Assembly (NCBI GenBank): GCA_002418185.1
Contig: DIDN01000022.1
Coordinates: 1-63,393 of the forward strand
DNA length: 63,393 nucleotides
Reading direction: 5' to 3'
Source of the DNA: Deltaproteobacteria bacterium UBA5799
Lineage (GTDB): Bacteria > Desulfobacterota > GWC2-55-46
Of this stretch, positions 6,824-32,156 are shown in pieces. The position numbers and the translations under genes are program-made. The first letter of the stretch is position 1. Each line of letters begins with the position of its first letter. Under the pieces are notes generated by a model that was not told the DNA's origin, did no database searches, and worked only from the letters and a program-made list of their open reading frames with translations.

Positions 6824-6856
6824 AAAAAAAGAGGGCAGGCCCCGGGGCCTGCCCTC
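6824..6856 (-). terminator. rho-independent terminator of the cytochrome operon
   Basis: Perfect 13-bp palindrome gagggcaggcccc/ggggcctgccctc. On the minus strand it is followed by a 7-T run (plus-strand A-run 6824-6830). Lies 21 nt after the hexahaem stop. Confidence 0.8.
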
Positions 6857-6876
6857 TCTGTTCGGGTCCGTCCTTG

Positions 6877-7752
6877 TTATTCTTCCGATTCCGCCTCGTC
6901 GTCCGTCTTCTCGCCAGCCTCCCCGTCCGCTTCCCCTTCTTCCTTTCCTTCCTTGTCGGCGTCCGGGTCTTCTATCACCGGAGCGGGCTGGGAGTGGCAC
7001 CTGAAGCAGTCGTTTATGGGGAACGCCACCTTGGTATGGCATACGCCGCAGTACTGCCCGGAGATTATCTTCATCATGTTCATCTCCGGGTTGCCGCCCT
7101 GCTGCTGCTTGAATATGGACTCGTGGCACGAGGTGCAGTCAAGGAGCCTGGTATGCACGTTATGCGGGTACTTGACGTCCGGCGGGCTCGGCTTGAACTT
7201 GGTGGTTGGTATTATTATGTCCATGTCGAACTCGAAGAGCTCGTCGGTGCCGTCCGGGTTTGCCGCGGCCCTTGAAGCGCCCGTCTCCAGGGCCTTCACC
7301 CAGTCGACCTTGTTCCCGAAGTAGTCCTTGGGGTGGTCCTTGAGCCTCTCGGCCATGTTCCTGTCCTGCGGAAGGCCGTACGAATGGCACTTGTCGCACT
7401 CAAAGGGCGCGAAGGCTATGTCGCCGTTATGGCAGGTCCCGCACTGCTTGCCAGCGAATATATCAGCCATGGTTATCTCCGCAGTGCCGGCCTTGAAGCT
7501 GAAGCCCAGGTCCGTGTGGCAGACCTTGCAGGCGAATTTGTTCCTGTGCACCCAATGCGGGAACACCACGGGACGCATGTCTGCATTGCTCGCGTTCCTG
7601 TCCAGGACCACGTTCCCGTACGTCTCCGGGTTCTTGGGCTTTCTCAAGTCCGTCTCCCACGTAACTCCCGCCTGGGCCCATTGATAAACGAAAAACCCGA
7701 CGACGGCCAGGGCCGCCACGGTTGAAATTCCCATTAACTTGATGCTCCGCAC
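6877..7752 (-). CDS. hexahaem c-type cytochrome (two c7/c3-like trihaem modules) with acidic C-terminal tail
   Basis: 6 CXXCH: CKVCH, CGTCH, CDKCH, CTSCH, CGVCH, CFRCH. N-terminal hydrophobic anchor/signal. The pattern FPH..H....C..CH....GK.CG.CHNG occurs twice. Confidence 0.9.
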   Translation of the reverse strand: MRSIKLMGISTVAALAVVGFFVYQWAQAGVTWETDLRKPKNPETYGNVVLDRNASNADMRPVVFPHWVHRNKFACKVCHTDLGFSFKAGTAEITMADIFAGKQCGTCHNGDIAFAPFECDKCHSYGLPQDRNMAERLKDHPKDYFGNKVDWVKALETGASRAAANPDGTDELFEFDMDIIIPTTKFKPSPPDVKYPHNVHTRLLDCTSCHESIFKQQQGGNPEMNMMKIISGQYCGVCHTKVAFPINDCFRCHSQPAPVIEDPDADKEGKEEGEADGEAGEKTDDEAESEE

Positions 7753-7780
7753 TTTGGACCTCCTTTGCTCCCTTACAATC

Positions 7781-8203
7781 TCAATGACCGGTATGGCATG
7801 AAGCGCATAATTTCAGGTACTCTATCCTCAGAAAGCCCGGGTGAACGGACCTGCCGTGAGGGTCGTGGCATGTGTGGCACACCATCTCGCGGTCGTCCGT
7901 CAGGGGCAGCCGGGCCGGGACATCTATGCCCGTCGTCAGCCCCATGGGATGGCGCGTGACCGGGTGGTTCCCGATGTTCCCGTGGTGGCACCTGACGCAG
8001 GTGGTCACGGCGTCCCTGTTAAGGAGCGGCGGCTGCTCGGTGTGGCACATCGAGCAGAGGTCGTCCCTGCCGAAATCATGCGGGTCTACGATGACCGTCT
8101 GCCCGTCCCCCTCTTCCTCGGCTGCCCGGCAGTCCTTTGCAGCCAATACCGCAGCAGCGGCCAGGAGCCCCAGCGCGGTTATCGTGGTCAATAGTATTTT
8201 CAT
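7781..8203 (-). CDS. tetrahaem c-type cytochrome, secreted
   Basis: 4 CXXCH: CSMCH, CVRCH, CHTCH, CASCH. Signal peptide MKILLTTITALGLLAAAAVLAA. Confidence 0.9.
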   Translation of the reverse strand: MKILLTTITALGLLAAAAVLAAKDCRAAEEEGDGQTVIVDPHDFGRDDLCSMCHTEQPPLLNRDAVTTCVRCHHGNIGNHPVTRHPMGLTTGIDVPARLPLTDDREMVCHTCHDPHGRSVHPGFLRIEYLKLCASCHTGH

Positions 8204-8240
8204 AGGCTAAAAACGCGCCGGGCGCCTTCCGCTTGCTTTT

Positions 8241-10433
8241 TCAAAACGAGCAGTCGCTTATGTTATCGCAGTCGTAATTCGCGTCTTCGGGAACTATCTC
8301 GATTTCGCTGAACGAGCCGTTGCACACCTTCTCCGTGGACGGGTTTATCGTCCGGAAGACTATGCGTCCGGACGCATAGGTGCTGGGCCTCGCGTACGAC
8401 TCGACGCACGCGCCGTTCATGAGCCTGTAGCCGAGCGGGTCCGAGTCCTCGAGCGTGCCGGCCGGCGCGTTGCTCCCGTGTATGCCCTTTATCTGGTTCA
8501 CCGTCTCGGTCGGGTCGTACCACCCGCCGTGGCACGACAGGCAGAGTATGCCGAACTTGTTCGAGTCGTTGCCGGTCCCCGTCCCCTGCATATAGAAGGG
8601 AGAGCTGGTGCCAAGCCCGTCGGGCGGGTGCGAGACCCTCGCATAGTTCGCTTTGGTGCCCACGTAGCCCTCGTCCCCGTAGACCTCGCGCTTGTGGCAG
8701 TTGTAGCAGAAGTTCTCTGCCGTGCCGAAACCCGTGGTGTTCGACTTGAGTATCCATTTCTCGTTCGAGCCGTGCACGCCCAGGGGGTCGGACGAGACGC
8801 TCGAGCCGTGGCATGCGGAGCATGTGACGGTGCTGTCGTGCGAGACGCTGAAATAACCGGTCCTCTCCCAGTTGGCCGGGAGGTCGACATACCTGAAGGT
8901 ATTGGTAAGCCCGAGGCCGTTGTCAGGCCAGTTGGGGTTCGCCGGCGGGGAGCTGGAAGGCATGTTCCTGCCTTGCGCGAACACCGGGTGGAAACCCATG
9001 TTGTTGACGTTGAAGTCCGCGGTGGGGTCGGACTGCTCGACCGTCGACCCGTCGGCATTGCCTGAAGGCGCATTGGGGGGCATGTTCCCGTAGGCATAGT
9101 ACGAATGGCACTTTATGCAGAGGTAGCCTTCGAGGTTGTTGCCGCCGGGGGTTGTCGAGAGGAAATCCACCACCTCGTAGGTGGTGGCCGGTTCCCCCGC
9201 AGAAGGCCAGAACAGAGGCTTGACTCCCCAGCTTCCCAGTATGTTGGGTCCGATTATGTTCCCGTTCTCGCCGCCCATGACATGGCTGCCTTCCATGGCG
9301 CCGTGGGGGTTGTGGCAGTCGGCGCATTCCGCGTGCCTGTTGTCCCTGAGATTGTCAGCCGTTTCCCTGGCCGGGTCGCCCGGGTACGTCCTCGACGGCG
9401 CGTGCAGGTCCCACGTGCCCTTGACATCGTGCTTGTAGGGGTAGTCGAACTGGGCCCTGAGGTCCTTTTCGGCCACGTTCCCGTTGTGGCAGTCGAGGCA
9501 GAGCCATTCCTCGCCTTCGACCTCGGAGGTGGACGGGTTCGTGCCCTTCAGGAGCGTTTTTCCGGCAGCGCCGCCGTGCGAGCGGTGGCATGCGAGGCAG
9601 CTCTGCATCTCCGGCGTGTCGTCGGTAAAGCCCTCTTCGCCCATGTCCTCGTGCCAGGGGTTCTCCCCCTCGCCGTTCCAGACGGCCGTGGACGTGGCGT
9701 GTATGGACGGGTTGGTCTCCCAGTACCTCTTGTCGTGGCATATCTGGCAGAGCCCGCCGTTTGAGAGGCTCCCGAGCAGGAACTTGGGGAACTCGGTGCC
9801 GTGCGGGTCGTGGCAGCTCGTGCACTGCATCATCCCCGTGCCGTCGAGCTTGACAATCGGCTCGCCTTCGGGGTCCTTTATCTCGTCATTCGACGGATAG
9901 GAACGGGAGTACTCGAAGGATATGGGGTGGTCGTCCATCAGGTCAGTGCCTATATGGGACGTAGATATGGAACTCAGCTTCCCTTCCTCTATGCCGGTGC
10001 CGGCTACGCCCAGTTCTCCCCCCAGCCCCTTTCCGGGCATGTTAAGGAGCGAGCCGATGGCTATGGTGCCGTCGTGGCACGCAAGGCAGAGCTTCGAGGA
10101 GCCTGTCGGCTGTCCCAGCGTGGGCGAGTTGGGCTCGAGGGTTGCGGCCAGGGTCAGGCTGCTGTAAACGTCGTATGTGGCCCCCGAGTCCTGCTTGTTC
10201 CACACGGGCCCCGAGGGGTTTGCGTTGTGCGGGGTGTGGCAGAAAACGCAAATCTCCGTCGTTTCACCGGACTTTATCTCCCCGGGGGAAAGCGAGCCGA
10301 AGTTGTGCTTCGTGGCGGAGACCGCGGCAAGCGAGTACCCGCCGGCCGCGGCCAGAAGGCCGGCGACCAGGGCTGCGTAGAGCGCCTTTCGCCCGATATT
10401 GCCGCTTTTCCCGTTTCCAGCTTTGAAAGACAT
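8241..10433 (-). CDS. undecahaem c-type cytochrome (paired-CXXCH type), 730 aa
   Basis: 11 CXXCH: CVFCH, CLACH, CTSCH, CQICH, CLACH, CLDCH, CADCH, CIKCH, CSACH, CYNCH, CLSCH. KHNF...CVFCHTPHN start motif. N-terminal hydrophobic segment. Confidence 0.9.
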   Translation of the reverse strand: MSFKAGNGKSGNIGRKALYAALVAGLLAAAGGYSLAAVSATKHNFGSLSPGEIKSGETTEICVFCHTPHNANPSGPVWNKQDSGATYDVYSSLTLAATLEPNSPTLGQPTGSSKLCLACHDGTIAIGSLLNMPGKGLGGELGVAGTGIEEGKLSSISTSHIGTDLMDDHPISFEYSRSYPSNDEIKDPEGEPIVKLDGTGMMQCTSCHDPHGTEFPKFLLGSLSNGGLCQICHDKRYWETNPSIHATSTAVWNGEGENPWHEDMGEEGFTDDTPEMQSCLACHRSHGGAAGKTLLKGTNPSTSEVEGEEWLCLDCHNGNVAEKDLRAQFDYPYKHDVKGTWDLHAPSRTYPGDPARETADNLRDNRHAECADCHNPHGAMEGSHVMGGENGNIIGPNILGSWGVKPLFWPSAGEPATTYEVVDFLSTTPGGNNLEGYLCIKCHSYYAYGNMPPNAPSGNADGSTVEQSDPTADFNVNNMGFHPVFAQGRNMPSSSPPANPNWPDNGLGLTNTFRYVDLPANWERTGYFSVSHDSTVTCSACHGSSVSSDPLGVHGSNEKWILKSNTTGFGTAENFCYNCHKREVYGDEGYVGTKANYARVSHPPDGLGTSSPFYMQGTGTGNDSNKFGILCLSCHGGWYDPTETVNQIKGIHGSNAPAGTLEDSDPLGYRLMNGACVESYARPSTYASGRIVFRTINPSTEKVCNGSFSEIEIVPEDANYDCDNISDCSF

Positions 10434-10465
10434 ATCCGTCCTGCCGTTCAGGGCTCCGGGGCCGG

Positions 10466-11536
10466 TCAGCTCCCGAGGTAATCGAATACCTGCACCCTGC
10501 CGTTATACGAGTCAGAGATGTATATCCTGTTGCCGTCGTCTATGAATACGCCGCTCGGGAGCCAGAAGGTGCCGGCTGACTTGCCGAGGGTGCCGAAGTT
10601 CAGGAGGAACTCCCCCTGCCTGTTGAATATCTGTACCGTGTCGAAAAGGGCGTCCGCGACGTAGATGTTGCCGTCCCTGTCGACGGCGATGCCCTTGGGC
10701 CTGCCGAAATCACCGGTCCCGTCCCCCTGACTGCCGAAGGAGCCCAGGAACGAGCCGCCACTGTCGAACATCTGGACCCTGAAGTTGAGCGAGTCCACGA
10801 CGTACAGGTCGCCGCCCCTGTCCAGTGCGAGGTCCACCGGGTAATTGAACTCTCCTATTTCCTTCCCCCTCCTGCCGAAGGAGCCGACCTCCGCGCCGAC
10901 AAGGTCGTATATGCGCACGCTGTGAGAGGCGGTGTCGGTCACATACACCCTGCCGTCCGCCTTGTTTATCGCGATGCCGGTGGGCCTTTCTCCCGCGGCG
11001 AATGAAAACCGGAACTTGCCGTTGGAGTTGAATACAAAGACCTTTTGGGCTACCGAGTCCGTGACATAGATATTGTCCTCGCCGTCGGTAGCCGCGGCTA
11101 TGGGCGAAGCGAACTGCTCGCGGCCCGGTTCATCGATGACGGTGTATTTCTTCCTGACCATGTCGAAGACGTGCACCTTCTTGAAGGCCGTATCGGCGAC
11201 TATGAGCCTTCCGGCGGAATCGACCGCAACGCCGTAGGGCTTGATGATCCGTTCGCTTTTCGCACCGAGTATGAAGTCGGCCAGCCTCTTGAAAAACCCG
11301 GTATTCGCGCCTATGTCCTCAGGCCTGCTGATCGTCCTGAGATAACTGATCCTTGCCGGTTCCGGCGGAGACGGCCAGATAAGCGGCGCCTGCGGCGTAG
11401 TGGACCAGCCCGGCTGCGCCGGGGCGGAAGCGCACCCGGCAGCCGAGAGCGCGAAGAAAGCAAGCGCCACGGCGAACCTGGATACGCCGTAGTACGATTT
11501 CCCGGGAGCCCTTTTGTCTTTCAGGATTACATCCAT
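10466..11536 (-). CDS. NHL-repeat six-bladed beta-propeller lipoprotein
   Basis: Repeated G.F..P.GIAVD..G.IYV.D....RV..F units. Lipobox-like LSAAGC after a hydrophobic leader. Confidence 0.85.
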   Translation of the reverse strand: MDVILKDKRAPGKSYYGVSRFAVALAFFALSAAGCASAPAQPGWSTTPQAPLIWPSPPEPARISYLRTISRPEDIGANTGFFKRLADFILGAKSERIIKPYGVAVDSAGRLIVADTAFKKVHVFDMVRKKYTVIDEPGREQFASPIAAATDGEDNIYVTDSVAQKVFVFNSNGKFRFSFAAGERPTGIAINKADGRVYVTDTASHSVRIYDLVGAEVGSFGRRGKEIGEFNYPVDLALDRGGDLYVVDSLNFRVQMFDSGGSFLGSFGSQGDGTGDFGRPKGIAVDRDGNIYVADALFDTVQIFNRQGEFLLNFGTLGKSAGTFWLPSGVFIDDGNRIYISDSYNGRVQVFDYLGS

Positions 11537-11548
11537 CAGGGAAATGAC

Positions 11549-12187
11549 CTACTTCCTGTGACAGTACTGGCAGATATCAAGTCCGGCGGACCTGAACCGC
11601 CTGGTGCTGTCAGCCCCCCAGTCGGCCCTGCCCGGCAGAAGCCCTCTCTCGTGCGGGTTGTGGCAGGTGGAGCATATTATCTGGCCTGTATTCGGGTCGA
11701 GCGGCAGGATAGTGGGTATGTCCTTCAAGGTCATCCTGATGTTGTCGTAAATGGTCTTGGGAGGGACCCTCAAGTGGTTCGGCGCCTTCTGAAGGACGCT
11801 CAGCATGGCTGTCGGCTGGATCTGCGGGTGGATAGGGACCGTATGGCAGCTCCTGCAAAGCTGTACCGGGTCCTCGAAATAGAGCTTCACGTCCTTTATG
11901 GTCAGGTTCTTGTCTATTGCCGGGACTTCCTTGTGGCACACCACGCACGTGCCCCAGAGCACCTCTCCGGTTTCTCCTATCTGGTTGTGCGGGTTGATTA
12001 TGGTAAGGAGCGCGTCGGCCCTCTCGTACGGAGGCGGCCCGGGCGGGGCAGCAGGAGGAGCAGGGTCGGCCGGGGCCTCTGCTGACCAGGCCTCGCCTGA
12101 GGCGAGGAGCGCGCCTGCAAGAAAGATGACCTTGAGGATGCCGTATTTCCTTGACATGTTGGCTACCTTCTCTGAGATGACGGCCAT
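11549..12187 (-). CDS. tetrahaem c-type cytochrome, secreted
   Basis: 4 CXXCH: CVVCH, CRSCH, CSTCH, CQYCH. The signal peptide follows the internal Met (MSRKYGILKVIFLAGALLASGEAWSA), so the start may be 12157. Confidence 0.88.
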   Translation of the reverse strand: MAVISEKVANMSRKYGILKVIFLAGALLASGEAWSAEAPADPAPPAAPPGPPPYERADALLTIINPHNQIGETGEVLWGTCVVCHKEVPAIDKNLTIKDVKLYFEDPVQLCRSCHTVPIHPQIQPTAMLSVLQKAPNHLRVPPKTIYDNIRMTLKDIPTILPLDPNTGQIICSTCHNPHERGLLPGRADWGADSTRRFRSAGLDICQYCHRK

Positions 12188-12206
12188 TGGCCGTTCTGGT
12201 TTTTGT

Positions 12207-13343
12207 TTACTGCTGCGTAAAGGCGTAAATGGAGCCGTCTTCCGAGCCTATGTACACCGCATTGCCCGTAACGGCCGGAGAGGACTGAATGCTCCCCTCG
12301 GTCATATGCTTCCAGACAGTCTCGCCGCTATAGAGGTCTACGGCATAGAGGCCCCCGTCGTCGCAGCCGACGTAAAGGAGGCCGTTCGCGGACACCGCCG
12401 GGGTGGAGTTGACCTCGTCCGGGAACCTGTATACGGCGAGCTCCCTGCCGTCTTTCCTGTTGAAGACGGTCACGTCGCCCTTCTTGGAGGCCACGTATAT
12501 CCTGTCGGCAGTTACCACCGGGGTGGCGTAAGCGAGCTTGCCGAGGTTCTTCCTCCAGACGAATTTGCCGTCCTCGGCGTTGAGCGCGTAGAGGGTCCTG
12601 TTATACGAGGAGAGATAGACTATGCCGTCCCGCACGACAGGTGAGGAATATATGGCGGATTCGGTCCGCAGCTGCCAGTTCCTCCCCCCGCTCCTGGCTG
12701 AGGCGGAATAGAGTATGCCGTTCTTTCCGGCGTAGTAGATTGAGCCGTCCGCATAGGCCGGGGAGGCGTATATGCCGCTGTACTTCTCGTAATCGGCGAT
12801 GTTCCTCCTCCATTCCCTCTGGCCGTCCTTTGCCCGGAGGGCGTAGAGGTAGAGGTCCTTCGAGCCTATGTAGACCTTGTCCTCTGCCACAACGGGCGAA
12901 GTGAGCACCGGGCCGCCGGTCTCGATCTTCCACACGAGCTTGCCGGTTTCTGCCTCGAGCGCGTAGACAAAGCCGTCCCTGGACCCGAAATAGACCCTGT
13001 CCCTGTCGACCGCCGGAGATGAGAAGACCTCGCCGTTGGTCTTGAACTTCCAGGCCAGGGCCCCGGTCTTCTCGTCCAGGGCGTAAAGGTGCATGTCATA
13101 CGAGCCCACAAAGACCTTGCCCTTGTAGACCGCCGGGGACGAGTAGACCCGCCCGCCGGTCTTGAACCGCCATTTTAAAGCGAGCGGCGGCCTGGGCGCC
13201 CTCTCGACAAAGGGGACGTTCTCCGGGCCCTTCAAGAACTTCGGCCAGTCCGCGGAGGCCTGGGCGAAAAAAAGCGGCAGCGCGGCCATTGAGAGGGCCA
13301 GCGCCGCTGTAATCTTCCCTGCTGTTAACCTCGATTGATGCAT
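12207..13343 (-). CDS. PQQ-like (BamB-like) beta-propeller repeat protein, secreted
   Basis: Many repeats of the V..SPAV....VY.GS.D..LYAL....G...W type. Signal peptide ending AQASA. Confidence 0.85.
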   Translation of the reverse strand: MHQSRLTAGKITAALALSMAALPLFFAQASADWPKFLKGPENVPFVERAPRPPLALKWRFKTGGRVYSSPAVYKGKVFVGSYDMHLYALDEKTGALAWKFKTNGEVFSSPAVDRDRVYFGSRDGFVYALEAETGKLVWKIETGGPVLTSPVVAEDKVYIGSKDLYLYALRAKDGQREWRRNIADYEKYSGIYASPAYADGSIYYAGKNGILYSASARSGGRNWQLRTESAIYSSPVVRDGIVYLSSYNRTLYALNAEDGKFVWRKNLGKLAYATPVVTADRIYVASKKGDVTVFNRKDGRELAVYRFPDEVNSTPAVSANGLLYVGCDDGGLYAVDLYSGETVWKHMTEGSIQSSPAVTGNAVYIGSEDGSIYAFTQQ

Positions 13344-13351
13344 AGTTCCTC

Positions 13352-13939
13352 TCAGACCTTCAACTTTGAGATTTCGTGGGATATTCTCTTCCGCTCCCGG
13401 GTTATCCCTTCGAGGGCTGCGGCAAGCTTGTTTGCGTCTCGGACAGACCCCTCAAGCACCCTGGACTCCCTCTCAATCGTTTGCCCGGATTTTTTGAGGG
13501 AACCGAAAAGAGCGGCGAGCGAGAGGGTCATTGAATTGAACGCGTCCGCCAGCCCGCCCGGCATATCGTTCGAGACCCGCCGGGCAAGCTCTCCCCGGGA
13601 GGCCCCTTTTACGGCCTCCCTCAACTCGAGGAGCGGGACCTCTATTCGGCGGAGGACAAAGTAGCCGATGACCGCGGAGGCGGCCAGGACCGCGGAAATG
13701 GTTGCGGCTCCGAGTTTCAGCAAGACAGGGACCGCGATTTCCGAGGTGGTCCGTATCTTTATATGGATTTTATATAACCCCTGTCCGAGTTCCCTGTCAA
13801 TTAAAAAATAGGCTGCGAGGAGGTTCAGCAGAAGCCCCAGGAGGACCGTTGCGGCAAAGGCCGCCGCGAACCTCGACTGAAGCCTCCTGTCCACGAAATA
13901 ATTTCTTCTCCTCCACCTGGTCTCGCGCGCATGCGGCAT
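13352..13939 (-). CDS. two-TM HAMP-domain protein without output domain (paralogue 1)
   Basis: RRRNYFVDRRLQ N-terminus, two hydrophobic segments, and a HAMP-like RRIEVPLLELREAVKGASRGELARRV..GGLADAFNSM followed by a short coiled coil. 195 aa. Confidence 0.7.
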   Translation of the reverse strand: MPHARETRWRRRNYFVDRRLQSRFAAAFAATVLLGLLLNLLAAYFLIDRELGQGLYKIHIKIRTTSEIAVPVLLKLGAATISAVLAASAVIGYFVLRRIEVPLLELREAVKGASRGELARRVSNDMPGGLADAFNSMTLSLAALFGSLKKSGQTIERESRVLEGSVRDANKLAAALEGITRERKRISHEISKLKV

Positions 13940-14035
13940 CAGGCCTCCTGGCCCGGGCTCGATTCCGGGCTATATGATAGTACCCTGGAATTAAAACCCC
14001 ATTAAACCACGGTTAATTCGTCGAACCCCCCCCCT

Positions 14036-14845
14036 CTACTTGTTATGGCACGAAAGGCAGAGCGCGCTGCCCTCGTTGCTCATGACGAGCTCGTTATGGA
14101 GCTTCGAGAACGGGTTATGGCAGCTACCGCATCCTACGTTCCCGGCAAAGAGCTTTATCTCGGGCGGGAGCTTGCCGACCGGGTTGTACGCGCCGCGGTA
14201 CCTTCGGCGGGCGTCGATGTAGGACACGCCGATGGGGTGGCTGAGTCCCGAGAGGCCTGACCTGTGGAAGAGCGCCCCTCCCATTTCCCTCCCCTCCGAG
14301 ACGGCGTCAGTCCCTGTCAGGGCGTCGTGGCACGCCATGCACCTCAATGAAAGCTCGTCGAGCACGCCCCCGATCTCTTCGGGGAGGTATTTCAACGAGG
14401 CTGAGCCCGTGACATGGGCCGAGCCGAGCGAGAACTGGTGGAGCTCGCTCTCCAGGTCGTTGTGGCAGAGCATGCAGAAGCCCGGACCCGCGGCCCTGGA
14501 GCGGAGGCGGAACGGCCCGTGCCCCTCCATGTGCACCGGGTGGCATGTAGTGCAGGTCACTTCCCCTTTCCAGTCGAGCGGCAGGTTCAGGGGCACCCGC
14601 ATCGAGGGCCTCATGTCGACCGGGTGGGAGAGCTCGAACTCGGAGGCGTGGCACTCAACGCACATCTTCGATATGTCCTGCAGGAATGCGCGCGGCTCAT
14701 CACCCGGCGCCGGTTCCCTTATGTGGCACTCGAGGCACCTGCCCTCGAAGTCGTGGTAGCTTGTCCACTGCCGGGAGTAGAGGAGCGCGGCGCCCGCGAC
14801 GGCTATCGCCGCGACTATCCCGATGGCCGTCCTACGCGCCTTCAT
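14036..14845 (-). CDS. heptahaem c-type cytochrome, membrane-anchored or secreted
   Basis: 7 CXXCH: CLECH, CVECH, CTTCH, CMLCH, CMACH, CGSCH, CLSCH. N-terminal hydrophobic helix. Confidence 0.9.
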   Translation of the reverse strand: MKARRTAIGIVAAIAVAGAALLYSRQWTSYHDFEGRCLECHIREPAPGDEPRAFLQDISKMCVECHASEFELSHPVDMRPSMRVPLNLPLDWKGEVTCTTCHPVHMEGHGPFRLRSRAAGPGFCMLCHNDLESELHQFSLGSAHVTGSASLKYLPEEIGGVLDELSLRCMACHDALTGTDAVSEGREMGGALFHRSGLSGLSHPIGVSYIDARRRYRGAYNPVGKLPPEIKLFAGNVGCGSCHNPFSKLHNELVMSNEGSALCLSCHNK

Positions 14846-15458
14846 GGGTCTTCACGCCCGAGAGGGCCTGCTGGAGCCTCTTTGCGTTCTCGCGTATTTC
14901 GCGGACCGCTTCCCGGGCCCCGGCCTGGTGCGGCCCTCCTCTTTCGAGGAACACGTAAAGCTCCTCTTCCGCCTTTTCGAGCGCTTCAATTGCGTCGGCT
15001 GCGCTCCTTGCCGAGTGGTTTACCGACCGGACCATCGAGTTCAGGTCTTCGGCAAGCTCAACGAGCTGGTCTTTCCCTCGAAGGCGCGTAACGACCGTAA
15101 GGTCGCCCGAGCCGATCTCTTCCATATTCCGGGCGAGCCTGAAGACCGGCCCCGCTATCCTGTGGGAATAGAGTACCGAGACTGCCGCAACGGCCGCGGT
15201 CGCCACCCCGAGGACGAGCACCGCGTACGAGGAGGCGAAAACGAGCGGCAGGGCCTTTACCTTGAGCTCGTAAAGCGTGAATACGGCCTCGCCGTAGGAG
15301 CCCCCCACGCCCCTGGAGAGTGAAAATACAAGGAGCGCGAGTAGCCCGGCTGCCCCGGCAAGCGTCGCGAGGCAGAGCTTGAGCCCGAACCTGAGCTTGA
15401 AGCCGAGCCCGAGGAGGCGCGGACCTTCCAAGTTTTTACGGGTATCCGAAGAAGCCAT
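14832..15458 (-). CDS. two-TM HAMP-domain protein without output domain (paralogue 2)
   Basis: Two hydrophobic segments, then HRIAGPVFRLARNMEEIGSGDLTVV..LVELAEDLNSM (HAMP) and a helical tail. Overlaps the heptahaem start by 14 nt. Confidence 0.7.
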   Translation of the reverse strand: MASSDTRKNLEGPRLLGLGFKLRFGLKLCLATLAGAAGLLALLVFSLSRGVGGSYGEAVFTLYELKVKALPLVFASSYAVLVLGVATAAVAAVSVLYSHRIAGPVFRLARNMEEIGSGDLTVVTRLRGKDQLVELAEDLNSMVRSVNHSARSAADAIEALEKAEEELYVFLERGGPHQAGAREAVREIRENAKRLQQALSGVKTHEGA

Positions 15459-15550
15459 CTTTCCCGGCTATAAATAGGATTCAAAACCGGACTGGGAGAA
15501 AAGATTCGAGGTGAGTGCGCGAAAAACCGAAGCGGCGGGATTCCACAGGC

Positions 15551-15579
15551 ATTATATCCGAATACGCCGCAGTTGTGAA
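15551..15579 (-). promoter_or_regulatory. sigma70-type promoter for the cytochrome/propeller/HAMP operon
   Basis: Minus strand reads TTCACA-N17-TATAAT (-35 at 15574-15579, -10 at 15551-15556), about 90 nt upstream of the ATG at 15458. Confidence 0.5.
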
Positions 15580-15618: not shown

Positions 15619-15647
15619 TTGAAAAAACCGCACGTTATTAATATAAT
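15619..15647 (+). promoter_or_regulatory. sigma70-type promoter for hemE-hemH-hemY
   Basis: TTGAAA-N17-TATAAT (15619-15624 and 15642-15647). Lies 39 nt from the divergent promoter and ~145 nt upstream of hemE. Confidence 0.5.
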
Positions 15648-15793: not shown

Positions 15794-16837
15794 ATGGCAA
15801 AGGTCGTGGAAAAGGACGCGTTTCTCAAGGCATGCCGGAGGGAAAGGGCGGGCTACACCCCGGTATGGCTCATGCGCCAGGCAGGCCGCTACATGAAGGA
15901 GTACATGGCTATCAGGGAAAAACATTCTTTCCTTGAGATGTGCCGGAACCCCGAGATAGCAGCCGAGGTGACGCTCCAGCCCATAAAGGCCTTTGACCTT
16001 GACGCGGCCATAATCTTCGCGGACATACTCCTCCCGCTCGACGGCATGGGCATAAACCTCGAGTTCGCAAAGAACGAGGGGCCCGTGATCTCAAACCCGG
16101 TCAGGACAAGAAAGGACATAGACGCCGTAAGGGTGATAAACCCGGAGGAGCACGTCCCCTATCTCCTCCAGGCGATTAGGCTCGTAAAATCCGAACTCAA
16201 CGGCAAGGTCCCGCTCATCGGCTTCTCCGGCGCCCCGTTTACGCTCGCAAGCTACATCATCGAGGGCGAGGGCTCCAAGAACTACATAAACACGAAAAAG
16301 CTCATGTACTCCGACCCCGAGGGCTGGAAGGCCCTAATGGAGAAGATATCCGACGTCATCATCGTCTACCTGGAGGCGCAGATAGAGGCCGGTGTGGACG
16401 CGGTCCAGCTCTTCGACAGCTGGGTAGGCTGCCTCGGGCCGGACGACTACAAGAACTACGCCATGCCTTACAGTAAAAAGATAATCGAGACCGTGAGGAA
16501 AAAGGGCGTGCCTTTCATAAACTTCAGCACGAACACCGGCACATACCTCGAAACGATCGCCGGGACCGGCGGCGACGTCGTGGGAGTCGACTGGAAGGTG
16601 CGGCTCGACGAGGCCTGGAAGACCATAGGCTATGACAGGGCCATACAGGGGAACCTCGACCCGGTGGTCCTCTTCGGCCCCGTGAGCGAGATAAGGAAGA
16701 GGGTCAAGGAGATACTCGACATGGCGGGCGGCAGGCCCGGCCACATATTCAACCTCGGCCACGGCATCATACTCGGCACGCCCGTGGACAACGTAAGGGC
16801 CGTAATCGACAGCGTGCACGAGCTTAGCGCAAAGTAA
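15794..16837 (+). CDS. hemE: uroporphyrinogen decarboxylase
   Basis: TPVWLMRQAGRYM signature near the N-terminus. 347 aa. Confidence 0.95.
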   Translation: MAKVVEKDAFLKACRRERAGYTPVWLMRQAGRYMKEYMAIREKHSFLEMCRNPEIAAEVTLQPIKAFDLDAAIIFADILLPLDGMGINLEFAKNEGPVISNPVRTRKDIDAVRVINPEEHVPYLLQAIRLVKSELNGKVPLIGFSGAPFTLASYIIEGEGSKNYINTKKLMYSDPEGWKALMEKISDVIIVYLEAQIEAGVDAVQLFDSWVGCLGPDDYKNYAMPYSKKIIETVRKKGVPFINFSTNTGTYLETIAGTGGDVVGVDWKVRLDEAWKTIGYDRAIQGNLDPVVLFGPVSEIRKRVKEILDMAGGRPGHIFNLGHGIILGTPVDNVRAVIDSVHELSAK

Positions 16838-16860: not shown

Positions 16861-17793
16861 ATGGCTGAACTTCCATTGAAGGGAATACTTCTGCTCGCGT
16901 TCGGCGGAGCGGATTCGATCGAGAACGTCGAGCCTTTTGTGAAAAACGTATTGAAGGGAAGGCCCGTAACGCCCGAGCTCGTGGCAAGGACCGTCGAGCG
17001 CTACAAGCTCATAGGCGGCAGGTCCCCGCTCCTGGAGATCACTCTCGCGCAGGCCAGTGCCCTCGAAGAGGAGCTCAACTCCGGCCCTGACGCCGCCTTC
17101 CGCTACAAGGCCTACGTAGGTATGCGCTATTGGCGCCCCTTCATAGCCGAGACCGTCACAAAAATGAAGGAGGACGGCGTCGAGGAGGCGGTCGCGATCA
17201 TCATGTCGCCCTTCACCTCGATAGTGGCCACCGGCGCCTACGAGACGGACGTGGAGGGCGCGCTCAACTCCCTCGGCAGCGGCCCGGCCGTCTCTTTCAT
17301 GCCGTGCTGGCACATAGAACGGGCCTTTCTCGACCTCATTGCCGATAATGTCAAGAAGGAGCTTTCGGCTTTCGCGGACCCCGGTGGCGCGCTCGTCATA
17401 TTCAGCTCGCACAGCCTGCCGAAGGTCGCCCTGGAGGGCGACCCGTACGAGATGATGGTGAACCAGTCGGCCTCGCTCATAATGGAAAGGGTCGGCAAGG
17501 CGGATTACAGGGTGGCGTACCAGAGCAAGGGCTCCGGGCCCAGGGAATGGCTCGGGCCGCAGACCGAGGACGTCATGGCAGAGGCCGCCAGGCTCGGAAA
17601 AAAGGGCGTAGTCATAGTGCCGCTCGGGTTCGCAGCCGACCACGTGGAGACCCTCTACGACATCGACATACTCTTTAAAGACCTCGCGCGCACGAACGGG
17701 CTCGAGTTCAGGCGCACGCCGTCCCTCAACACCGACCCGGCCTTCATCCGCATGCTCGCCGGCATCATGAAAAATCCGGCTGAAAAGAATTGA
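16861..17793 (+). CDS. hemH: ferrochelatase (possibly coproporphyrin ferrochelatase)
   Basis: GILLLAFGG N-terminus and SSHSLP motif. 310 aa soluble type. Lies between hemE and hemY. Confidence 0.9.
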   Translation: MAELPLKGILLLAFGGADSIENVEPFVKNVLKGRPVTPELVARTVERYKLIGGRSPLLEITLAQASALEEELNSGPDAAFRYKAYVGMRYWRPFIAETVTKMKEDGVEEAVAIIMSPFTSIVATGAYETDVEGALNSLGSGPAVSFMPCWHIERAFLDLIADNVKKELSAFADPGGALVIFSSHSLPKVALEGDPYEMMVNQSASLIMERVGKADYRVAYQSKGSGPREWLGPQTEDVMAEAARLGKKGVVIVPLGFAADHVETLYDIDILFKDLARTNGLEFRRTPSLNTDPAFIRMLAGIMKNPAEKN

Positions 17794-17795
17794 CA

Positions 17796-19235
17796 ATGAA
17801 AAGAGTCGTAGTCATCGGGGGCGGCATAGCCGGACTCGCGACCGCGTGGAGCCTCCGCGAGCAGGAGCCCAAGGGCGCGGACTTCGAAATAGTCCTCCTT
17901 GAGCGGAACGAGCGGTTCGGGGGCAACATACGGACAGAGAAAACGGACGGGTTCCTGATCGAAGGCGGCCCTGACTGCTTCCTTTCCGAGAAGCCCTGGG
18001 CCATGGAGCTCTGTAAGCGCATAGGCCTTTCAGGGAAGTTCCTCCCCACGAACGACAGGCACAGGAAGACCTTCGTGCTCTCGCGCGGCCGCCTGCACGT
18101 GCTCCCCGAGGGCGTAATCCTCATGATCCCCACAAAGATACTCCCGCTTGCGACCTCAAGCCTCATATCCTGGCCCGGAAAGCTCCGGATGGCAATGGAC
18201 CTCTTTGTCCCGAAGAGGACGAGCGGCGGAGACGAGAGCCTCGGCGACTTCGTAAGGAGGAGGCTCGGGAAAGAGGCGCTCGAAAAGATAGCCGAGCCGC
18301 TCGTGGCGGGCGTGCACGCAGGAGACCCCGAGACCATGTCCGTCCGGGCGAGCTTCCCCAAGTTCGTCCAGCTGGAAGAGGAGAGCGGAAGCCTCATAAG
18401 GGGCATGGTAAAGAGGATGGCCCTTGCCGCGGCCCACAGGAAGGGAAAGCCCGGCGGGCAGTCCGCCGGTCGGGTAACGATGTTCATGACCTTGAAGGAC
18501 GGCCTCTCAGAGCTCATCGATACGCTCGCGTCCAGGCTTGAGGGCATGGATAAAACGATACTCCGGAAGGGCGTCCGGGCCGCGTCTGTCGATAAGGCGG
18601 GGGCCGGGTACAGGGTGACCCTCGAGGGCGGCGGCTCGCTCGACGCGGACGCGGTAATCGTTGCGGCCCCGGCCTGGGCCGCGGCCTCGATATTGAAGGG
18701 CCTGGACGCGGCGCTCTCCGAGAAGCTCCTCACCATTCCCTATGTCTCGACCGCCACGGTCTCGATTGCGTTCAAAAAAAAGGACGTCAAGCACCCCATG
18801 AACGGCTTCGGGTTCGTGGTCCCGAAAATCGAGGGGCGGAGGATCATGGCAGCCACCTGGACCTCCATGAAGTTCGCCGGCAGGGCCCCTGAGGACTCGG
18901 TACTCATAAGGTGCTTCGTAGGCGGCTCGAAGAACGCCGATCTCGTTTCGCTCGACGACGGCGAGATGCTCGGCATGGTAAGGGAAGAGCTCCGCGACAT
19001 AATGGGCATAGAGGCCGAGCCGGTGCTCGCAAGGGTCTTCAGGTGGCGGAACTCCATGCCCCAGTACACGATCGGCCACGAGGAGCGCGTCGCCTGGATA
19101 GACGAGCGCCTCAACATCCACACCGGGCTCCACCTCGCCGGGAGCGCCTATCACGGCATAGGCATTAGCGACAGCATCCGCTGCGGCGAGGCGGTTGCCA
19201 AACGGGTAATCAAAGAGCTTGCGGGCAATCGCTGA
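17796..19235 (+). CDS. hemY: protoporphyrinogen/coproporphyrinogen III oxidase, HemY type (FAD)
   Basis: MKRVVVIGGGIAGLATAW dinucleotide-binding fold. ~480 aa. The ORF track opens at TTG 17790, but the ATG at 17796 is more likely. Confidence 0.88.
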   Translation: MKRVVVIGGGIAGLATAWSLREQEPKGADFEIVLLERNERFGGNIRTEKTDGFLIEGGPDCFLSEKPWAMELCKRIGLSGKFLPTNDRHRKTFVLSRGRLHVLPEGVILMIPTKILPLATSSLISWPGKLRMAMDLFVPKRTSGGDESLGDFVRRRLGKEALEKIAEPLVAGVHAGDPETMSVRASFPKFVQLEEESGSLIRGMVKRMALAAAHRKGKPGGQSAGRVTMFMTLKDGLSELIDTLASRLEGMDKTILRKGVRAASVDKAGAGYRVTLEGGGSLDADAVIVAAPAWAAASILKGLDAALSEKLLTIPYVSTATVSIAFKKKDVKHPMNGFGFVVPKIEGRRIMAATWTSMKFAGRAPEDSVLIRCFVGGSKNADLVSLDDGEMLGMVREELRDIMGIEAEPVLARVFRWRNSMPQYTIGHEERVAWIDERLNIHTGLHLAGSAYHGIGISDSIRCGEAVAKRVIKELAGNR

Positions 19236-19340: not shown

Positions 19341-20063
19341 ATGGATACAGGCGTGAAGGAAAGGTCCTTTTTCTCAGCCATTTGCGTTGAGCGTTGCGGG
19401 GGCGTATGCTGCGACCCCTGGTGGGGCATAATCTCCTATCCCTTCGCAAGGGATGGCGGTCTCGGGAACCCTTCCGTCTTCAGGGCCGAGGTGCTAAAGG
19501 GCATAAAGGCGCGGGTCGGGAGGATAACCGACGCCTACAAGACGTCCGGGGAGGAGCCGCGCCGGCTCTTCGGCCAGCCTGAAAGGTATAATGTCGTCGT
19601 TCGGGATATCCGGCGCTCCGGGCAGGCGGTCACGATGAACCTGGTCGCAATGTTCGCCTTCAGGTGCTCGCTTCTGGGCGATGACAAGTCCTGCTCCATA
19701 CACCCTTCCATAATCGGGTGCGAGATAAGGCCGCCGCACTGCGGCGAGCTCGGCTCGCGGGATGCGGGCCCCGGGGAAAAGGGCTTTTGCAGGATAATCC
19801 ACGAGGCAGGCGCGGCTCAAGGCGATCAGGCGGCAATCGACGCCGCCATAGAAAGGGAGAAGGGCATATCGGCCAGGAGCTTCAACGAAGGCGCGGAAAC
19901 CGCCGAGGATGCGGCTGAACGGGTGGTCGAGGCCGTCCGGTCGTGGTGCGGGGCAAACGCGCCCGACCTCCTCCCGGATGACAGGGCTGCGCAGCAGCCC
20001 GGGCGGAACGACCCCTGCTGGTGCGGGAGCGGCGCCAAATTCAAGAAGTGCCACGGCCGGTAG
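19341..20063 (+). CDS. YkgJ-like cysteine-cluster domain fused to a C-terminal SEC-C metal-binding motif
   Basis: CGGVCCDPWW and FRCSLLGDDKSCSIHPS..RPPHC (UPF0153/YkgJ-like pattern). C-terminus is DPCWCGSGAKFKKCHG. Confidence 0.65.
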   Translation: MDTGVKERSFFSAICVERCGGVCCDPWWGIISYPFARDGGLGNPSVFRAEVLKGIKARVGRITDAYKTSGEEPRRLFGQPERYNVVVRDIRRSGQAVTMNLVAMFAFRCSLLGDDKSCSIHPSIIGCEIRPPHCGELGSRDAGPGEKGFCRIIHEAGAAQGDQAAIDAAIEREKGISARSFNEGAETAEDAAERVVEAVRSWCGANAPDLLPDDRAAQQPGRNDPCWCGSGAKFKKCHGR

Positions 20064-26569: not shown

Positions 26570-26622
26570 TAATAGCTTATGTCCCCCGCAAAACCAGGGA
26601 CGAGCCTTTTCATTAACATATT

Positions 26623-26698
<76 letters not shown>

Positions 26699-26705
26699 TA
26701 AAATC

Positions 26706-26738
26706 AAGGGGTTAGCCGATTTTGGGCTGCCCCTTTTT
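26706..26738 (+). terminator. hairpin + T-run after tRNA-Asn (possibly bidirectional with the helicase gene)
   Basis: aagggg-tt-agcc...ggct-g-cccctt followed by ttttc. On the other strand the same stem is followed by gatttt. Confidence 0.5.
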
Positions 26739-26783
26739 CATTGGACTGTCCTAAATTTGTGCTTTAACGTCGCTTATCGCAGG

Positions 26784-29700: not shown

Positions 29701-29912
29701 ATCCTGTTGCACAAGGCAAAACGCTTTTCCGGATCAGACTCTTCACGTAATGCCTGCTCAAGCACCTTCGCAACAAAAACAGAATAACGGGATGGCTGCT
29801 CTTCAGGGTCTATCTTGCCGAAAACTGACCTGAGCTCAGGATGCTGCTCGAGCGCATCGCGGAGAGATTCATCTATCAGGGCTTCGTAAATCCCGTGTGC
29901 AGGTTGCTTCAT
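26784..29912 (-). CDS. PLD-family (HKD) nuclease domain + SF2 DExH helicase + C-terminal DUF3427-like domain protein
   Basis: HKD: RLHAKAYHF..IGSANMS. Helicase motifs: ATGTGKT, DETHH, LTATPER, QQLGRGLR. The C-terminal ~150 aa (YQKTEREFSPSTMYADY..LHWESQ..IKMVWKLRHPMP) resemble DUF3427 as I recall it. Confidence 0.85.
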   Translation of the reverse strand: MKQPAHGIYEALIDESLRDALEQHPELRSVFGKIDPEEQPSRYSVFVAKVLEQALREESDPEKRFALCNRILEQVSTEPDRGHLGKHRLVAKQKAVLLEITPPNYGTSGIPRPHTPMVESSLFTGAPREPQLAHELQQEMRSSDEVDILVSFIKWAGLRLLMPAFEDLRDRHVPVRLITTSYMGASDSPAVEWLAKMPNVRVRVSYDTERTRLHAKAYHFRRKTGFSTAYIGSANMSHAAITSGLEWNIKVTAQDMPHILDKFSVEFETYWNSREFIPFDPANPTDFRTAIARARNPKKAGPTVFFDLRPHPFQERILEALERERAMHGRWRNLVIAATGTGKTVVAAFDFKRFYEQRQRQARLLFVAHRQEILQQAHATFSNVLRDQNFGELLVGPYQANRLEHLFCSVGMLASRRLWEQVGKNFYDFIVVDETHHGTADSYRPIFTQFAPKVLLGLTATPERMDGDNVAADFGNRFAAEIRLPEALEEKLLCPFHYFGVADPVAINQDRFWRNGRYDAAALEKVYTGAHILARQRIDAILKALDRYEPDREAIKGIGFCVSIKHAMFMAEMFSKQGIPSGAFVSGVDDARCQELLAQLKDGRLTFLFTVDKLSEGVDVPEVNTVLFLRPTESLTIFLQQLGRGLRHAPGKDCLMVLDFVGQAHRRYRIDTKLKALLPRHRFPIDREVELDFPHLPAGCSIQLDRLSRQYVLENIRENLGRLAVQVPERIQTFTSETGQELTFGNFVRYHDYEPERLLASETWSGWKARAQKAPIPTDPDIARLKKALIRVASVSGPREIALLRKVTSRIARRAIADALKLAGNSAISVYYRLWADKGGNLGITSLEDAFVRLSRNPSILSDLDEILAWSEEDTPVSGMIPDLPFACPFELHAQYGSVDILAASGQATLDSAGQRGVGVFHFPNIKAYALLVTYQKTEREFSPSTMYADYPVSRELLHWESQSNTSQQSVTGQNLVHHEQRGYTILIFARDQKKRNGTTVPFTYLGPADRVSYESERPIKMVWKLRHPMPVDMFEDNRRGG

Positions 29913-30325
29913 CGTTCAACAGCCCTGATTGAAAGATATGTCTCCATTACCGGCAGATCCGCCTCGGCCCAATCCAGAGATGGCAACTCTTCGGGGGTCA
30001 GCCAGACGATGGCAGCATGTTCATGCGGGGTAATCTGCCCGGACTCGATGGCACAGATGAAAGGATGGAGTGTTACTGTAAAGACAGCATAATCATGGGT
30101 GTGTGACGGCAGCAGGCGACCCACGCTTATGCGTACGCCCAACTCCTCAACAATTTCACGCCGCAGGCATTCCTGCGGTGACTCGCCGTCATTTATCTTG
30201 CCTCCGGGGAATTCCCACTTGAGCGGAAGGCTCATGGCAGAGCTTCGCTGGGCAGCCAGGATACGACCGTCTTGTTCTATGATCGCGCAGGTGACGTGGA
30301 TGTGTTTTCTGGAAGCTATGGCCAC
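29909..30325 (-). CDS. Nudix hydrolase (MutT/NudG-like (d)NTP pyrophosphohydrolase)
   Basis: Nudix box GGKINDGESPQECLRREIVEELG. GTG start with AGGAGAGG Shine-Dalgarno. Its stop overlaps the helicase start (ATGA). Confidence 0.88.
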   Translation of the reverse strand: MAIASRKHIHVTCAIIEQDGRILAAQRSSAMSLPLKWEFPGGKINDGESPQECLRREIVEELGVRISVGRLLPSHTHDYAVFTVTLHPFICAIESGQITPHEHAAIVWLTPEELPSLDWAEADLPVMETYLSIRAVER

Positions 30326-32155: not shown

Positions 32156-32156
32156 A

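Follow-up and report, generated by a model that had tools for sequence, protein, structure and literature searches.

A nine-gene, 32-haem cytochrome operon in an uncultured class of Desulfobacterota and its likeness to OmcE/Uet-type electron-conduit clusters

Introduction

The 63,393-nucleotide stretch of contig DIDN01000022.1 from Deltaproteobacteria bacterium UBA5799 (assembly GCA_002418185.1), referred to here as the window, contains nine consecutive minus-strand open reading frames (ORFs), g1 to g9 (6877-15458), which encode five multihaem cytochromes, two beta-propellers and two small HAMP-type membrane proteins. The operon raises the question of what kind of electron-transfer system it specifies when neither a porin nor an evident quinol dehydrogenase is found among its products. 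A first-pass annotation, made from the DNA sequence alone, proposed that the propellers scaffold the cytochromes in place of a porin, and regarded the full gene set as uncharacterised. The comparison with related loci and published clusters led us to a different reading, to which we assign a probability of about 0.5: the operon would be a lineage-specific, barrel-less derivative of the OmcE/Uet-type electron-conduit clusters, with a new inner-membrane module.

In OmcE-type systems, the link to the inner-membrane quinone pool and the role of the conserved accessory genes are unsettled. The host class, GWC2-55-46, is an uncultured class of Desulfobacterota. A preprint assigns the genome of a related species, Deltaproteobacteria bacterium GWC2_55_46, to this class and reports a working O2-independent ubiquinone pathway in it.

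Results

A conserved NHL-undecahaem core

Related loci were collected by homology to the undecahaem cytochrome g7. One genome per species was used, the best 80 loci were retained, from many phyla, and their neighbourhoods were read at ±10 kb; individual loci are cited by their L numbers. A homologue of the NHL-repeat propeller g6 accompanied the undecahaem homologue in 76 of the 80 loci, and the NHL gene directly preceded the undecahaem gene in at least 60 of 79. Exactly 11 CXXCH motifs were counted in 76 g7-related ORFs. The recurrent architecture comprised a free OmcE-like tetrahaem, an NHL protein, a barrel-like ORF, a further NHL protein and the undecahaem. The separate OmcE-like tetrahaem ORF (~200-280 aa) was present in 53/80 loci and the barrel-like ORF, which is haem-free and ~600-670 aa long, in 57/80. 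The examples read carry a signal peptide, and the last residue is Phe or Trp in five of six; this ORF was thus taken as a putative outer-membrane barrel. Judged from gene content, the NHL-undecahaem pair is the conserved core of widespread OmcE/Uet-type clusters.

This architecture matches two published kinds of cluster, which indicates that the operon belongs to a known, widespread kind and is not an isolated invention. The first is the omcE nanowire cluster of Desulfuromonadia (G. sulfurreducens GSU0615-0618 region, D. soudanensis WTL; Petersen et al., bioRxiv 10.1101/2025.10.22.684050). Like this cluster, the operon joins multihaem cytochromes with beta-propeller lipoprotein(s), holds a complete OmcE-type tetrahaem domain (within g7, see below), has additional multihaem cytochromes (five in the operon), and adjoins haem genes (resB/ccsB in the omcE cluster, hemEHY in the window). 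The omcE cluster has two beta-propeller lipoproteins, whereas the window has one NHL protein with a lipobox-like motif and a second propeller, g4, with a plain signal peptide. The operon further differs in having no free OmcE subunit of ~200-230 aa and no large beta-barrel, and in the addition of the g1-g2-g3 triad, the double-c7 hexahaem, a pair of small tetrahaems and the BamB-like propeller. For the Geobacter cluster, 'two multihaem cytochromes' are described, and these were compared with the operon by description only.

The second is the uet (undecahaem electron transfer) cluster of Ca. Tenderia electrophaga and Gallionella, in which the order is UetA tetrahaem, UetC barrel, UetDEG c7 trihaems, UetH/I NHL and UetJ undecahaem, followed by ccsAB (bioRxiv 10.1101/2022.05.06.490989; PMC10734462). 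In both uet and the window, an 11-haem doubled-CXXCH cytochrome directly follows an NHL propeller, and c7-type trihaem domains are present, those of the window being in g9 (two TIGR04257 matches). The window differs in that it has no UetA free tetrahaem, UetB PPIase, UetC 28-strand barrel or UetF cupredoxin. This equivalence is drawn from architecture and description, not from the Tenderia sequences. Homologues of g7 with 33-38% identity occupy the UetJ position beside NHL and ccsAB/resB genes in Proteobacteria loci (L005, L010, L011), and a further homologue in this identity range (L028) lies beside NHL genes only. The tetrahaem called UetA in work on uet and the OmcE of nanowire studies seem to form a single family. 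As the first-pass annotation stated, this precise set of nine genes is indeed uncharacterised; however, it does not stand alone, given that its NHL and undecahaem genes are the OmcE/Uet core.

The OmcE-like domain of the undecahaem

All 11 CXXCH motifs and 12 other His of g7 are invariant in 20 homologues (alignment A1). The N-terminal domain of g7 is OmcE-like: a profile of the A1 homologues matched 7TFS_A (E 5e-42) and 9YUQ_N (E 1e-35) over residues ~19-229, and the alignment with 7TFS brought the four CXXCH motifs and the TKH, CHxPH and DHP histidines all into register. Furthermore, a hidden Markov model (HMM) built from 51 free OmcE-like ORFs matched the domain with an independent E value (iE) of 1.6e-51. 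We take 7TFS, an entry titled only 'Cytochrome c', to be the G. sulfurreducens OmcE filament. The 9YUQ entry, with 16 chains of 218 aa each, is presumably the D. soudanensis OmcE bundle of the preprint (10.1101/2025.10.22.684050). OmcE stops right past haem 4, whereas g7 goes on with seven further haems.

Across many phyla, the undecahaem of OmcE/Uet-type clusters opens with a full OmcE-like tetrahaem module (e.g., L027 7396-9177, L028 5335-7068). An xKHDLS-type N-terminal motif was seen in 78 of 100 g7-like ORFs (L009-L088). The OmcE-bundle preprint reports having found no OmcE-like tip or base candidate in the Desulfuromonadia omcE operons (bioRxiv 10.1101/2025.10.22.684050), and the conserved opening of the undecahaem bears on how the filaments are based or capped. 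The AlphaFold2 (AF2) model of g7 had a mean predicted local distance difference test (pLDDT) score of 35, too poor for fold comparison.

Absence of the barrel and the free OmcE subunit

Six barrel-like ORFs from related loci gave no match better than E 0.037 in the whole 63-kb window. A search with the g7 N-terminal domain identified no free OmcE-like ORF in the window, in L001-4 or in L009; in the window, the OmcE-like module is found only in fused form, in g7 (18-235) and in part in g2. Similarly, no barrel-like or free OmcE-like ORF was present within ±10 kb in two related species that carry the operon, in which hemE occupies the barrel/free-OmcE position. A more distant sister operon (L090, 1-20711) shares the gene order of the window operon from the PQQ-like propeller via g5, the NHL protein, the undecahaem (901 aa) and g8 to g9. 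A barrel-like gene, whose 883-aa product ends in …VRFF, and genes for two extended OmcE-like cytochromes (386 and 433 aa) lie directly upstream. As L090 retains these genes, the barrel-less state appears to be derived and lineage-specific.

The missing parts could alternatively be encoded elsewhere in the genome. The operon would then belong to a complete OmcE-type nanowire system, in which g7 would be the membrane-proximal base of the filament and would dock via its OmcE-like domain, with the barrel and the polymerising subunit supplied from another locus. The frequency of both ORFs in the related loci, their position immediately upstream in L090, and the retention of all the OmcE haem and His positions in the g7 domain are consistent with this explanation. 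We nevertheless consider it rather unlikely, as searches of the 63-kb window and of the ±10-kb surroundings in the two related species revealed neither part, and hemE takes up that position in these species.

The absence of a porin from the operon and the window, and the presence of two propellers, are what the first-pass annotation relied upon in suggesting that the propellers replace the porin and that the cytochrome assembly itself spans the envelope or reaches the surface. Clusters of NHL and multihaem genes have also been reported in Dethiobacter, a single-membrane bacterium, which fits a scaffold or chaperone role for NHL proteins that is not dependent on a porin. In D. ferrophilus IS5, clusters DFE_0448-0451 and DFE_0461-0465 combine multihaem cytochromes and NHL propellers with no recognised porin, and the propellers were proposed to stabilise an outer-membrane cytochrome complex (Deng et al. 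2018, PMC5815863). No HAMP triad was found in the searched passages of that paper, and the clusters are likened to the window by description only. In the wider family, however, the NHL propellers accompany the putative barrel and do not generally replace it, a soluble or lipid-anchored propeller has no known way of passing a haem chain through a bilayer, and g4 has no lipid anchor. Replacement of the porin by propellers is thus very unlikely. The operon also differs from the MtrCAB/PCC (porin-cytochrome conduit) systems, as no barrel is found in it or in the window.

The HAMPa-heptahaem-HAMPb triad

The first three genes of the operon encode HAMPa (g1), a heptahaem cytochrome (g2) and HAMPb (g3). 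The g1 protein has an N-in topology with transmembrane (TM) helices at 26-53 and 69-98, a ~25-aa periplasmic loop, a HAMP domain at 97-146 and a helical tail of ~60 aa. The g3 protein has a very basic N-terminus (RRRNYF), TM helices at 23-48 and 67-97, a divergent HAMP and a helical tail. An IAGP motif at the TM2/HAMP junction is invariant in HAMPa (eight lineage copies), as is a Tyr in the periplasmic loop. In HAMPb, the short periplasmic loop contains an invariant His. There was no Pfam call for g3, which carries the canonical AS2 motif GLADAFNSM and gave weak NCBIfam matches on the HAMP regions of histidine kinases. The proteins g1 and g3 matched each other's family HMMs (E 4e-8 and 4e-13), and their pairwise BLAST comparison was not significant. 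Of the earlier description of two paralogous 2-TM HAMP proteins, the HAMP assignment of g1 was thus supported by Pfam, whereas the kinship of g1 and g3 holds at the profile level only. A Tat signal was considered for the RRxYF sequence of g3 and rejected, as the hydrophobic stretch begins ~13 residues past the motif.

The g2 protein comprises a hydrophobic helix (residues 5-25), a first CXXCH at residue 37, four haems (1-4) and an OmcE-like region. Its similarity to OmcE spans residues ~124-269, and haem 4 may belong to either part. The OmcE-like HMM matched residues 161-269 (iE 3e-19), the comparison with 7TFS gave E 7.5e-7, and g2 ends as OmcE does, at the last CXXCH (…CLSCHNK at the C-terminus). 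The seven CXXCH motifs and five other His were invariant in 21 homologues (alignment A2). The invariance of the CXXCH motifs of g7 and g2 across 20-21 homologues indicates that these genes are under selection. The heptahaem family (~265 aa) is broad, with about 100 of the 150 best-scoring 50%-identity clusters in an exhaustive profile search being near full-length (~250-300 aa). Only helix 2-29 was confidently modelled for g2 by AF2 (mean pLDDT 52).

The hydrophobic N-terminus followed by haem 1 gives g2 what we take to be a CymA/NrfH-like layout, with a single N-terminal helix and the first CXXCH 13 residues after the hydrophobic segment. The g2-family profile aligned to the NrfH N-terminus through haems 1-2, in a weak match to 2J7A_C (E 1.4e-4; profile positions 17-70, 2J7A_C aligned at 22-73). 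It differs from NrfH/CymA (NapC/NirT) proteins in having seven haems rather than four, and two HAMP-type 2-TM partners where NapC/NirT proteins have none; it also has no counterpart of the CXXCHxM motif of NrfH haem 1. Membership of the NapC/NirT family was rejected, as g2 fails the Pfam and NCBIfam models: PF03264 gave no match for g2 and only weak matches for 6/21 family members (best E 0.0024), and TIGR03153 scored 19.8 bits against a cut-off of 134. The previous statement that no NapC/NirT/CymA-type protein is present is therefore accurate for the family models but too strong in view of the layout of g2 and its weak match to NrfH, and the absence of a quinol dehydrogenase from the operon appears doubtful.

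The triad was present in the window, L001-4, L090, L014, L027 and L091, and the heptahaem was located between HAMPa and HAMPb in every triad context surveyed. In six of eight contexts, the end of the HAMPa reading frame runs into the start of the heptahaem frame (by 14 nt in the window); in L090 and L091, the two are 130 and 253 nt apart. The spacing from heptahaem to HAMPb ranges from an overlap to 101 nt, and two TPR-repeat genes lie in between in L090. Full omcE-type clusters contain the triad, or finish with it, in a Nitrospiraceae genome (L027) and in two other 'Deltaproteobacteria' (L014, L091), and part of the triad is found in a Polarisedimenticolaceae genome (L010); the triad lies beside such clusters in at least four lineages besides that of the window. 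In Magnetococcus sp. DMHC-1 (L089 9436-11802), the triad occurs alone: its reading frames overlap, it adjoins lptD/surA/pdxA/ksgA, no further cytochrome is encoded in the vicinity, and a gene for a 129-aa secreted protein comes after it. The HAMP proteins, which had been described as interleaved with the cytochromes, instead bracket g2, and the triad is a conserved, tightly linked unit. A literature search for a module of HAMP and multihaem proteins found nothing relevant. In two unrelated lineages (L014 5739-6491, L027 9292-10077), the gene for a conserved secreted protein of ~250-260 aa separates the undecahaem from the triad; this protein is absent from the window.

A cytochrome-b (Ni_hydr_CYTB-like) module with adjoining multihaem genes was identified in 11 loci, none of which has the triad. 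Conversely, the triad-bearing clusters gave no match to the cytochrome-b ORF, and no NrfD- or NapC-like gene was obvious in their maps. Three Planctomycetota clusters have an adjoining g2-like, TM-anchored hexahaem with no HAMP partners. From this distribution and the layout of g2, the triad would most likely be the inner-membrane module of the pathway, coupled to quinone.

The HAMP domains could also point to a different function, in which the triad is a redox sensor or transducer rather than an electron entry point. By analogy with SRII-HtrII, the heptahaem would then pass on the redox state of the periplasm to the HAMP proteins, whether by lateral contacts between TM helices, by use of the invariant loop His as a haem ligand that can be switched, or by both, and the cytoplasmic helical tails of g1 and g3 would act on an unnamed partner. 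This would be consistent with the genuine HAMP domain of g1, the canonical AS1/AS2 motifs (IAGP; GLADAFNSM) in g1/g3, the solitary triad of Magnetococcus, and the sigma-54 regulators or histidine kinases that flank the L027 and L091 clusters. The HtrII transducer was also the best PDB neighbour of g1, although the match was not significant (E 0.11). SRII/HtrII resembles the triad, as an analogy only, in that a 2-TM HAMP protein partners a separate cofactor-bearing membrane protein; however, a complete chemoreceptor signalling domain follows in HtrII, whereas g1 and g3 come to an end ~60 residues past the HAMP. Likewise, g1 shares a HAMP after TM2 with histidine kinases and chemoreceptors but has no output domain. 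No cytoplasmic output domain (HisKA/HATPase, MCP signal, GGDEF etc.) was detected in g1 or g3 by Pfam or NCBIfam, and the ~50-60 residues that follow the HAMP are poorly conserved. Moreover, seven haems are many for a sensor, and the triad-bearing clusters would be left with no candidate for the link to the quinone pool, whereas the triad-less clusters have the cytochrome-b module. A sensory role, the main alternative for the triad, is thus considered unlikely.

Propellers and periplasmic carriers

Compared to the wider family, g4, g5, g8 and g9 are particular to the operon of the window lineage. Among the loci surveyed, g4 occurs only in this operon and in L090. It has a Sec signal with no lipobox and no Cys in the signal region, and it matched designed 'Cake' propellers (E 1e-88) and BamB structures (E ~1e-28) in the PDB. 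Its score on the BamB equivalog TIGR03300 was 215.6 bits, under the cut-off of 285. A PQQ dehydrogenase was considered for g4 and is unlikely: its 378 aa are BamB-like in size (PQQ dehydrogenases have 550-690 aa), it is closest to BamB and non-enzymatic propellers, and it falls far below every dehydrogenase cut-off. The NHL protein g6 carries a lipobox-like AAGC (…LSAAG-C35), a motif seen in 85/138 g6 homologues, and is a probable lipoprotein. Both propellers had been assigned correctly in the first-pass annotation.

The tetrahaem g5 has a signal peptide and a Pro-rich linker, and its true start is likely Met11 (12157). Part of the 8-10-haem proteins encoded ahead of the 7-haem/cytochrome-b genes in L005 and L028 resembles g5 at 32-38% identity, and a 10-haem protein in L040 does so within the same range; comparison of g5 with the PDB gave no informative match. 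Residues 40-138 of g8 align to positions 30-130 of the g2-family HMM (E 5e-18), and on this alignment g8 is a soluble paralogue of the four-haem N-terminal part of g2. The hexahaem g9 matched 3OV0 (E 1e-40), consistent with GSU1996-type c7 domains. The g9 C-terminus forms a highly acidic, low-complexity tail of ~30 residues (…DPDADKEGKEEGEADGEAGEKTDDEAESEE; 6877-6970, minus strand).

With such haem-dense carriers, including the GSU1996-type double-c7 protein, and with no outer-membrane component encoded, the operon could specify a purely periplasmic network for electron storage and distribution, a 32-haem 'capacitor' for soluble redox partners with no extracellular role. The O2-independent ubiquinone synthesis of the lineage, which implies high-potential acceptors, would agree with this. 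Elsewhere, however, the NHL-undecahaem core is tied to barrel and OmcE clusters, and the OmcE-type domain and the lipoprotein partner suggest a function close to the outer membrane, making such a network quite unlikely.

Operon organisation and control elements

The intergenic gaps from g1 to g9 were recomputed as -14, 96, 8, 19, 12, 32, 37 and 28 nt, in agreement with the earlier description of gaps of at most 96 nt or overlaps. The recounted CXXCH motifs (g2, 7; g5, 4; g7, 11; g8, 4; g9, 6) also gave the same sum of 32, and no CX3-4CH or CXXCK extras were found among the operon's cytochromes. All nine products begin with a hydrophobic signal or anchor segment. This supports the view, already taken in the first annotation, that every product is exported or membrane-bound and that this is an envelope multihaem electron-transfer operon. 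The Pfam and NCBIfam analysis of the nine proteins identified doubled-CXXCH and c7 modules in the cytochromes. No NapC/NirT, NrfD, cytochrome b or porin family reached threshold, there was no PPIase, cupredoxin or porin match, and the DmsE/MtrA-family NCBIfam scores were far under the cut-off; the earlier exclusion of an NrfD-type subunit and a porin was thus upheld.

The coordinates of the operon, its control elements and the adjoining haem genes are given in Table 1. The promoter had been proposed at the same position, and is kept in the related species: the -35 hexamer is the same in GWC2_55_46 and L003, and the -10 hexamer is TATAAT in GWC2_55_46 and TATACT in L003 (alignment A3). The terminator, previously placed at 6824-6856 with a 13-bp stem, was essentially right, and its limits and stem were refined. 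No convincing internal sigma-70 promoter or terminator was found within the operon, and an Rfam scan of the operon identified no RNA element. The AT-rich block in the g2-g3 gap is kept in three species of this lineage of ~60% GC, and consists of two TTTAAT repeats ~10 nt (about one helical turn) apart, followed by TAT[CT]AT. Its spacing does not fit a canonical sigma-70 promoter, and the predicted RNA fold of the gap was no better than that of shuffled sequences. The block may be an internal regulatory or processing site.

Table 1. Positions of the operon genes, control elements and adjoining haem-biosynthesis genes in the window.
Feature	Coordinates	Strand	Evidence or remark
g1, HAMPa, 208 aa	14832-15458	-	PF00672 E 7e-8, 33 bits vs cut-off 25
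g2, heptahaem cytochrome, 269 aa	14036-14845	-	7 CXXCH
g2-g3 gap, 96 nt	13940-14035	-	AT-rich block, conserved (alignment A4)
g3, HAMPb, 195 aa	13352-13939	-	HAMPa HMM match E 4e-8
g4, secreted PQQ-repeat/BamB-like beta-propeller, 378 aa	12207-13343	-	PF13360 (PQQ_2) E 2e-55
g5, tetrahaem cytochrome	11549-12187	-	4 CXXCH; Paired_CXXCH_1 E 3e-8
g6, NHL-repeat beta-propeller	10466-11536	-	PF01436 E 2e-38
g7, undecahaem cytochrome, 730 aa, signal peptide	8241-10433	-	11 CXXCH
OmcE-like tetrahaem domain of g7, residues 18-235	9729-10382	-	7TFS match
g8, small secreted tetrahaem cytochrome	7781-8203	-	4 CXXCH
g9, secreted hexahaem, two c7-type trihaem domains	6877-7752	-	TIGR04257 E 2e-35, two stretches
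Promoter TTCACA-N17-TATAAT, sigma-70-type	15551-15579	-	11/12 consensus positions
Intrinsic terminator	6828-6859	-	14-pair stem, 4-nt loop, T-run; begins 17 nt past g9 stop
hem-gene promoter TTGAAA-N17-TATAAT	15619-15647	+	40 nt from cytochrome-operon promoter
hemE	15794-16837	+	divergent from cytochrome operon
hemH	16861-17793	+	divergent from cytochrome operon
Protoporphyrinogen-oxidase-like gene	17790-19235	+	divergent from cytochrome operon

Conservation in related species

The neighbourhood search for the nine-gene order found the identical set and order in two further species, with 43-73% protein identity. The operon of GWC2_55_46 (GCA_001595385.3) shows 56-73% protein identity to that of the window, and the operon of GCA_040961595.1 shows 43-57%. 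In both, the operon is flanked by divergent hemE-hemH-hemY and by a downstream DHH-CBS-poly(A) polymerase gene. The divergent hem/cytochrome arrangement and the AT-rich promoter block are kept in the two species, which suggests that haem synthesis and the 32-haem operon share one control region.

Discussion

The gene content, homologies, synteny and conservation described above suggest a quinone-coupled complex and an order of carriers. In a barrel-less OmcE/Uet-type derivative, g2 would be held at the inner membrane by its N-terminal helix and the 2-TM HAMP-type proteins g1 and g3. The g1-g2-g3 complex would exchange electrons with the quinone pool, taking the part that a cytochrome-b module seems to have in the sister clusters. 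The electrons would then pass through the soluble periplasmic tetrahaems g5 and g8 and the double-c7 hexahaem g9, and would arrive at g7, partnered with the NHL lipoprotein g6 near the outer membrane, while the BamB-like g4 may be an extra scaffold. As no outer-membrane passage is encoded in the operon, the chain would either stop in the periplasm or use parts encoded elsewhere. Electrons may flow in either direction: OmcE has been tied to the reduction of Fe(III) oxide, whereas uet is proposed for electron uptake and is tied to cathode or Fe(II) oxidation (bioRxiv 10.1101/2022.05.06.490989; PMC10734462), and the host makes ubiquinone.

Several observations weigh against this reading. The g2 protein fails the NapC/NirT Pfam model, as do most of its family members, and it might be soluble, should its N-terminus be a signal peptide that is cleaved (possible AGA|A site). 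The AF2 models of g7 and g2 provide no support at the level of fold or complex, and the mutual exclusion of the triad and cytochrome b is based on ±10-kb windows at about 20 loci. As the operon lacks an outer-membrane component, it may be wrong to speak of a 'conduit' in this lineage. HAMP domains serve in signalling and, to our knowledge, have not been described as subunits of redox complexes; the triad may for this reason be a sensor.

The triad could be a new kind of quinone-coupled cytochrome complex, or an SRII/HtrII-like, cytochrome-coupled transmembrane transducer. As g2 ends like an OmcE subunit (…CLSCHNK) and g7 begins like one (…TKHNF…), the two might dock, including through a cross-subunit His-haem bond, and the nanowire interface might thus be reused for a finite intracellular cable. 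The combined proposal, in which the triad would be an undescribed inner-membrane redox module and g2 and g7 would dock via the nanowire polymerisation interface into an 18-haem periplasmic wire, is speculative and decidedly improbable.

As a natural stripped-down variant, in which the NHL-undecahaem core is retained and the barrel and filament subunit are lost or encoded elsewhere, the operon would show how the parts depend on one another. The triad is the only candidate membrane link in several clusters, and hence a concrete candidate for the inner-membrane step or for a redox sensor of a new kind. With a host class that is uncultured and produces ubiquinone anaerobically, the physiology served could be unusual, for example electron uptake or the use of a high-potential acceptor.

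Other features of the window

The haem-biosynthesis genes are immediately followed by a gene (19341-20063, plus strand) for a Cys-rich protein of 240 aa, which carries a SEC-C metal-binding motif at its C-terminus. The stretch 26622-44501, from a tRNA-Asn (26622-26697) to a tRNA-Ser (44417-44501), is low in GC (48-58% vs ~60%). It encodes a PLD-nuclease/helicase/DUF3427 protein, a NUDIX protein, an AbiEii-like nucleotidyltransferase, a CheB-CheR-PAS fusion and PAS histidine kinases, and looks like an integrated island with defence-like genes. The ORFs at 59401-62138 (plus strand) were read as DnaA and DnaN from their N-terminal sequences alone, which suggests that the window probably adjoins a replication origin.

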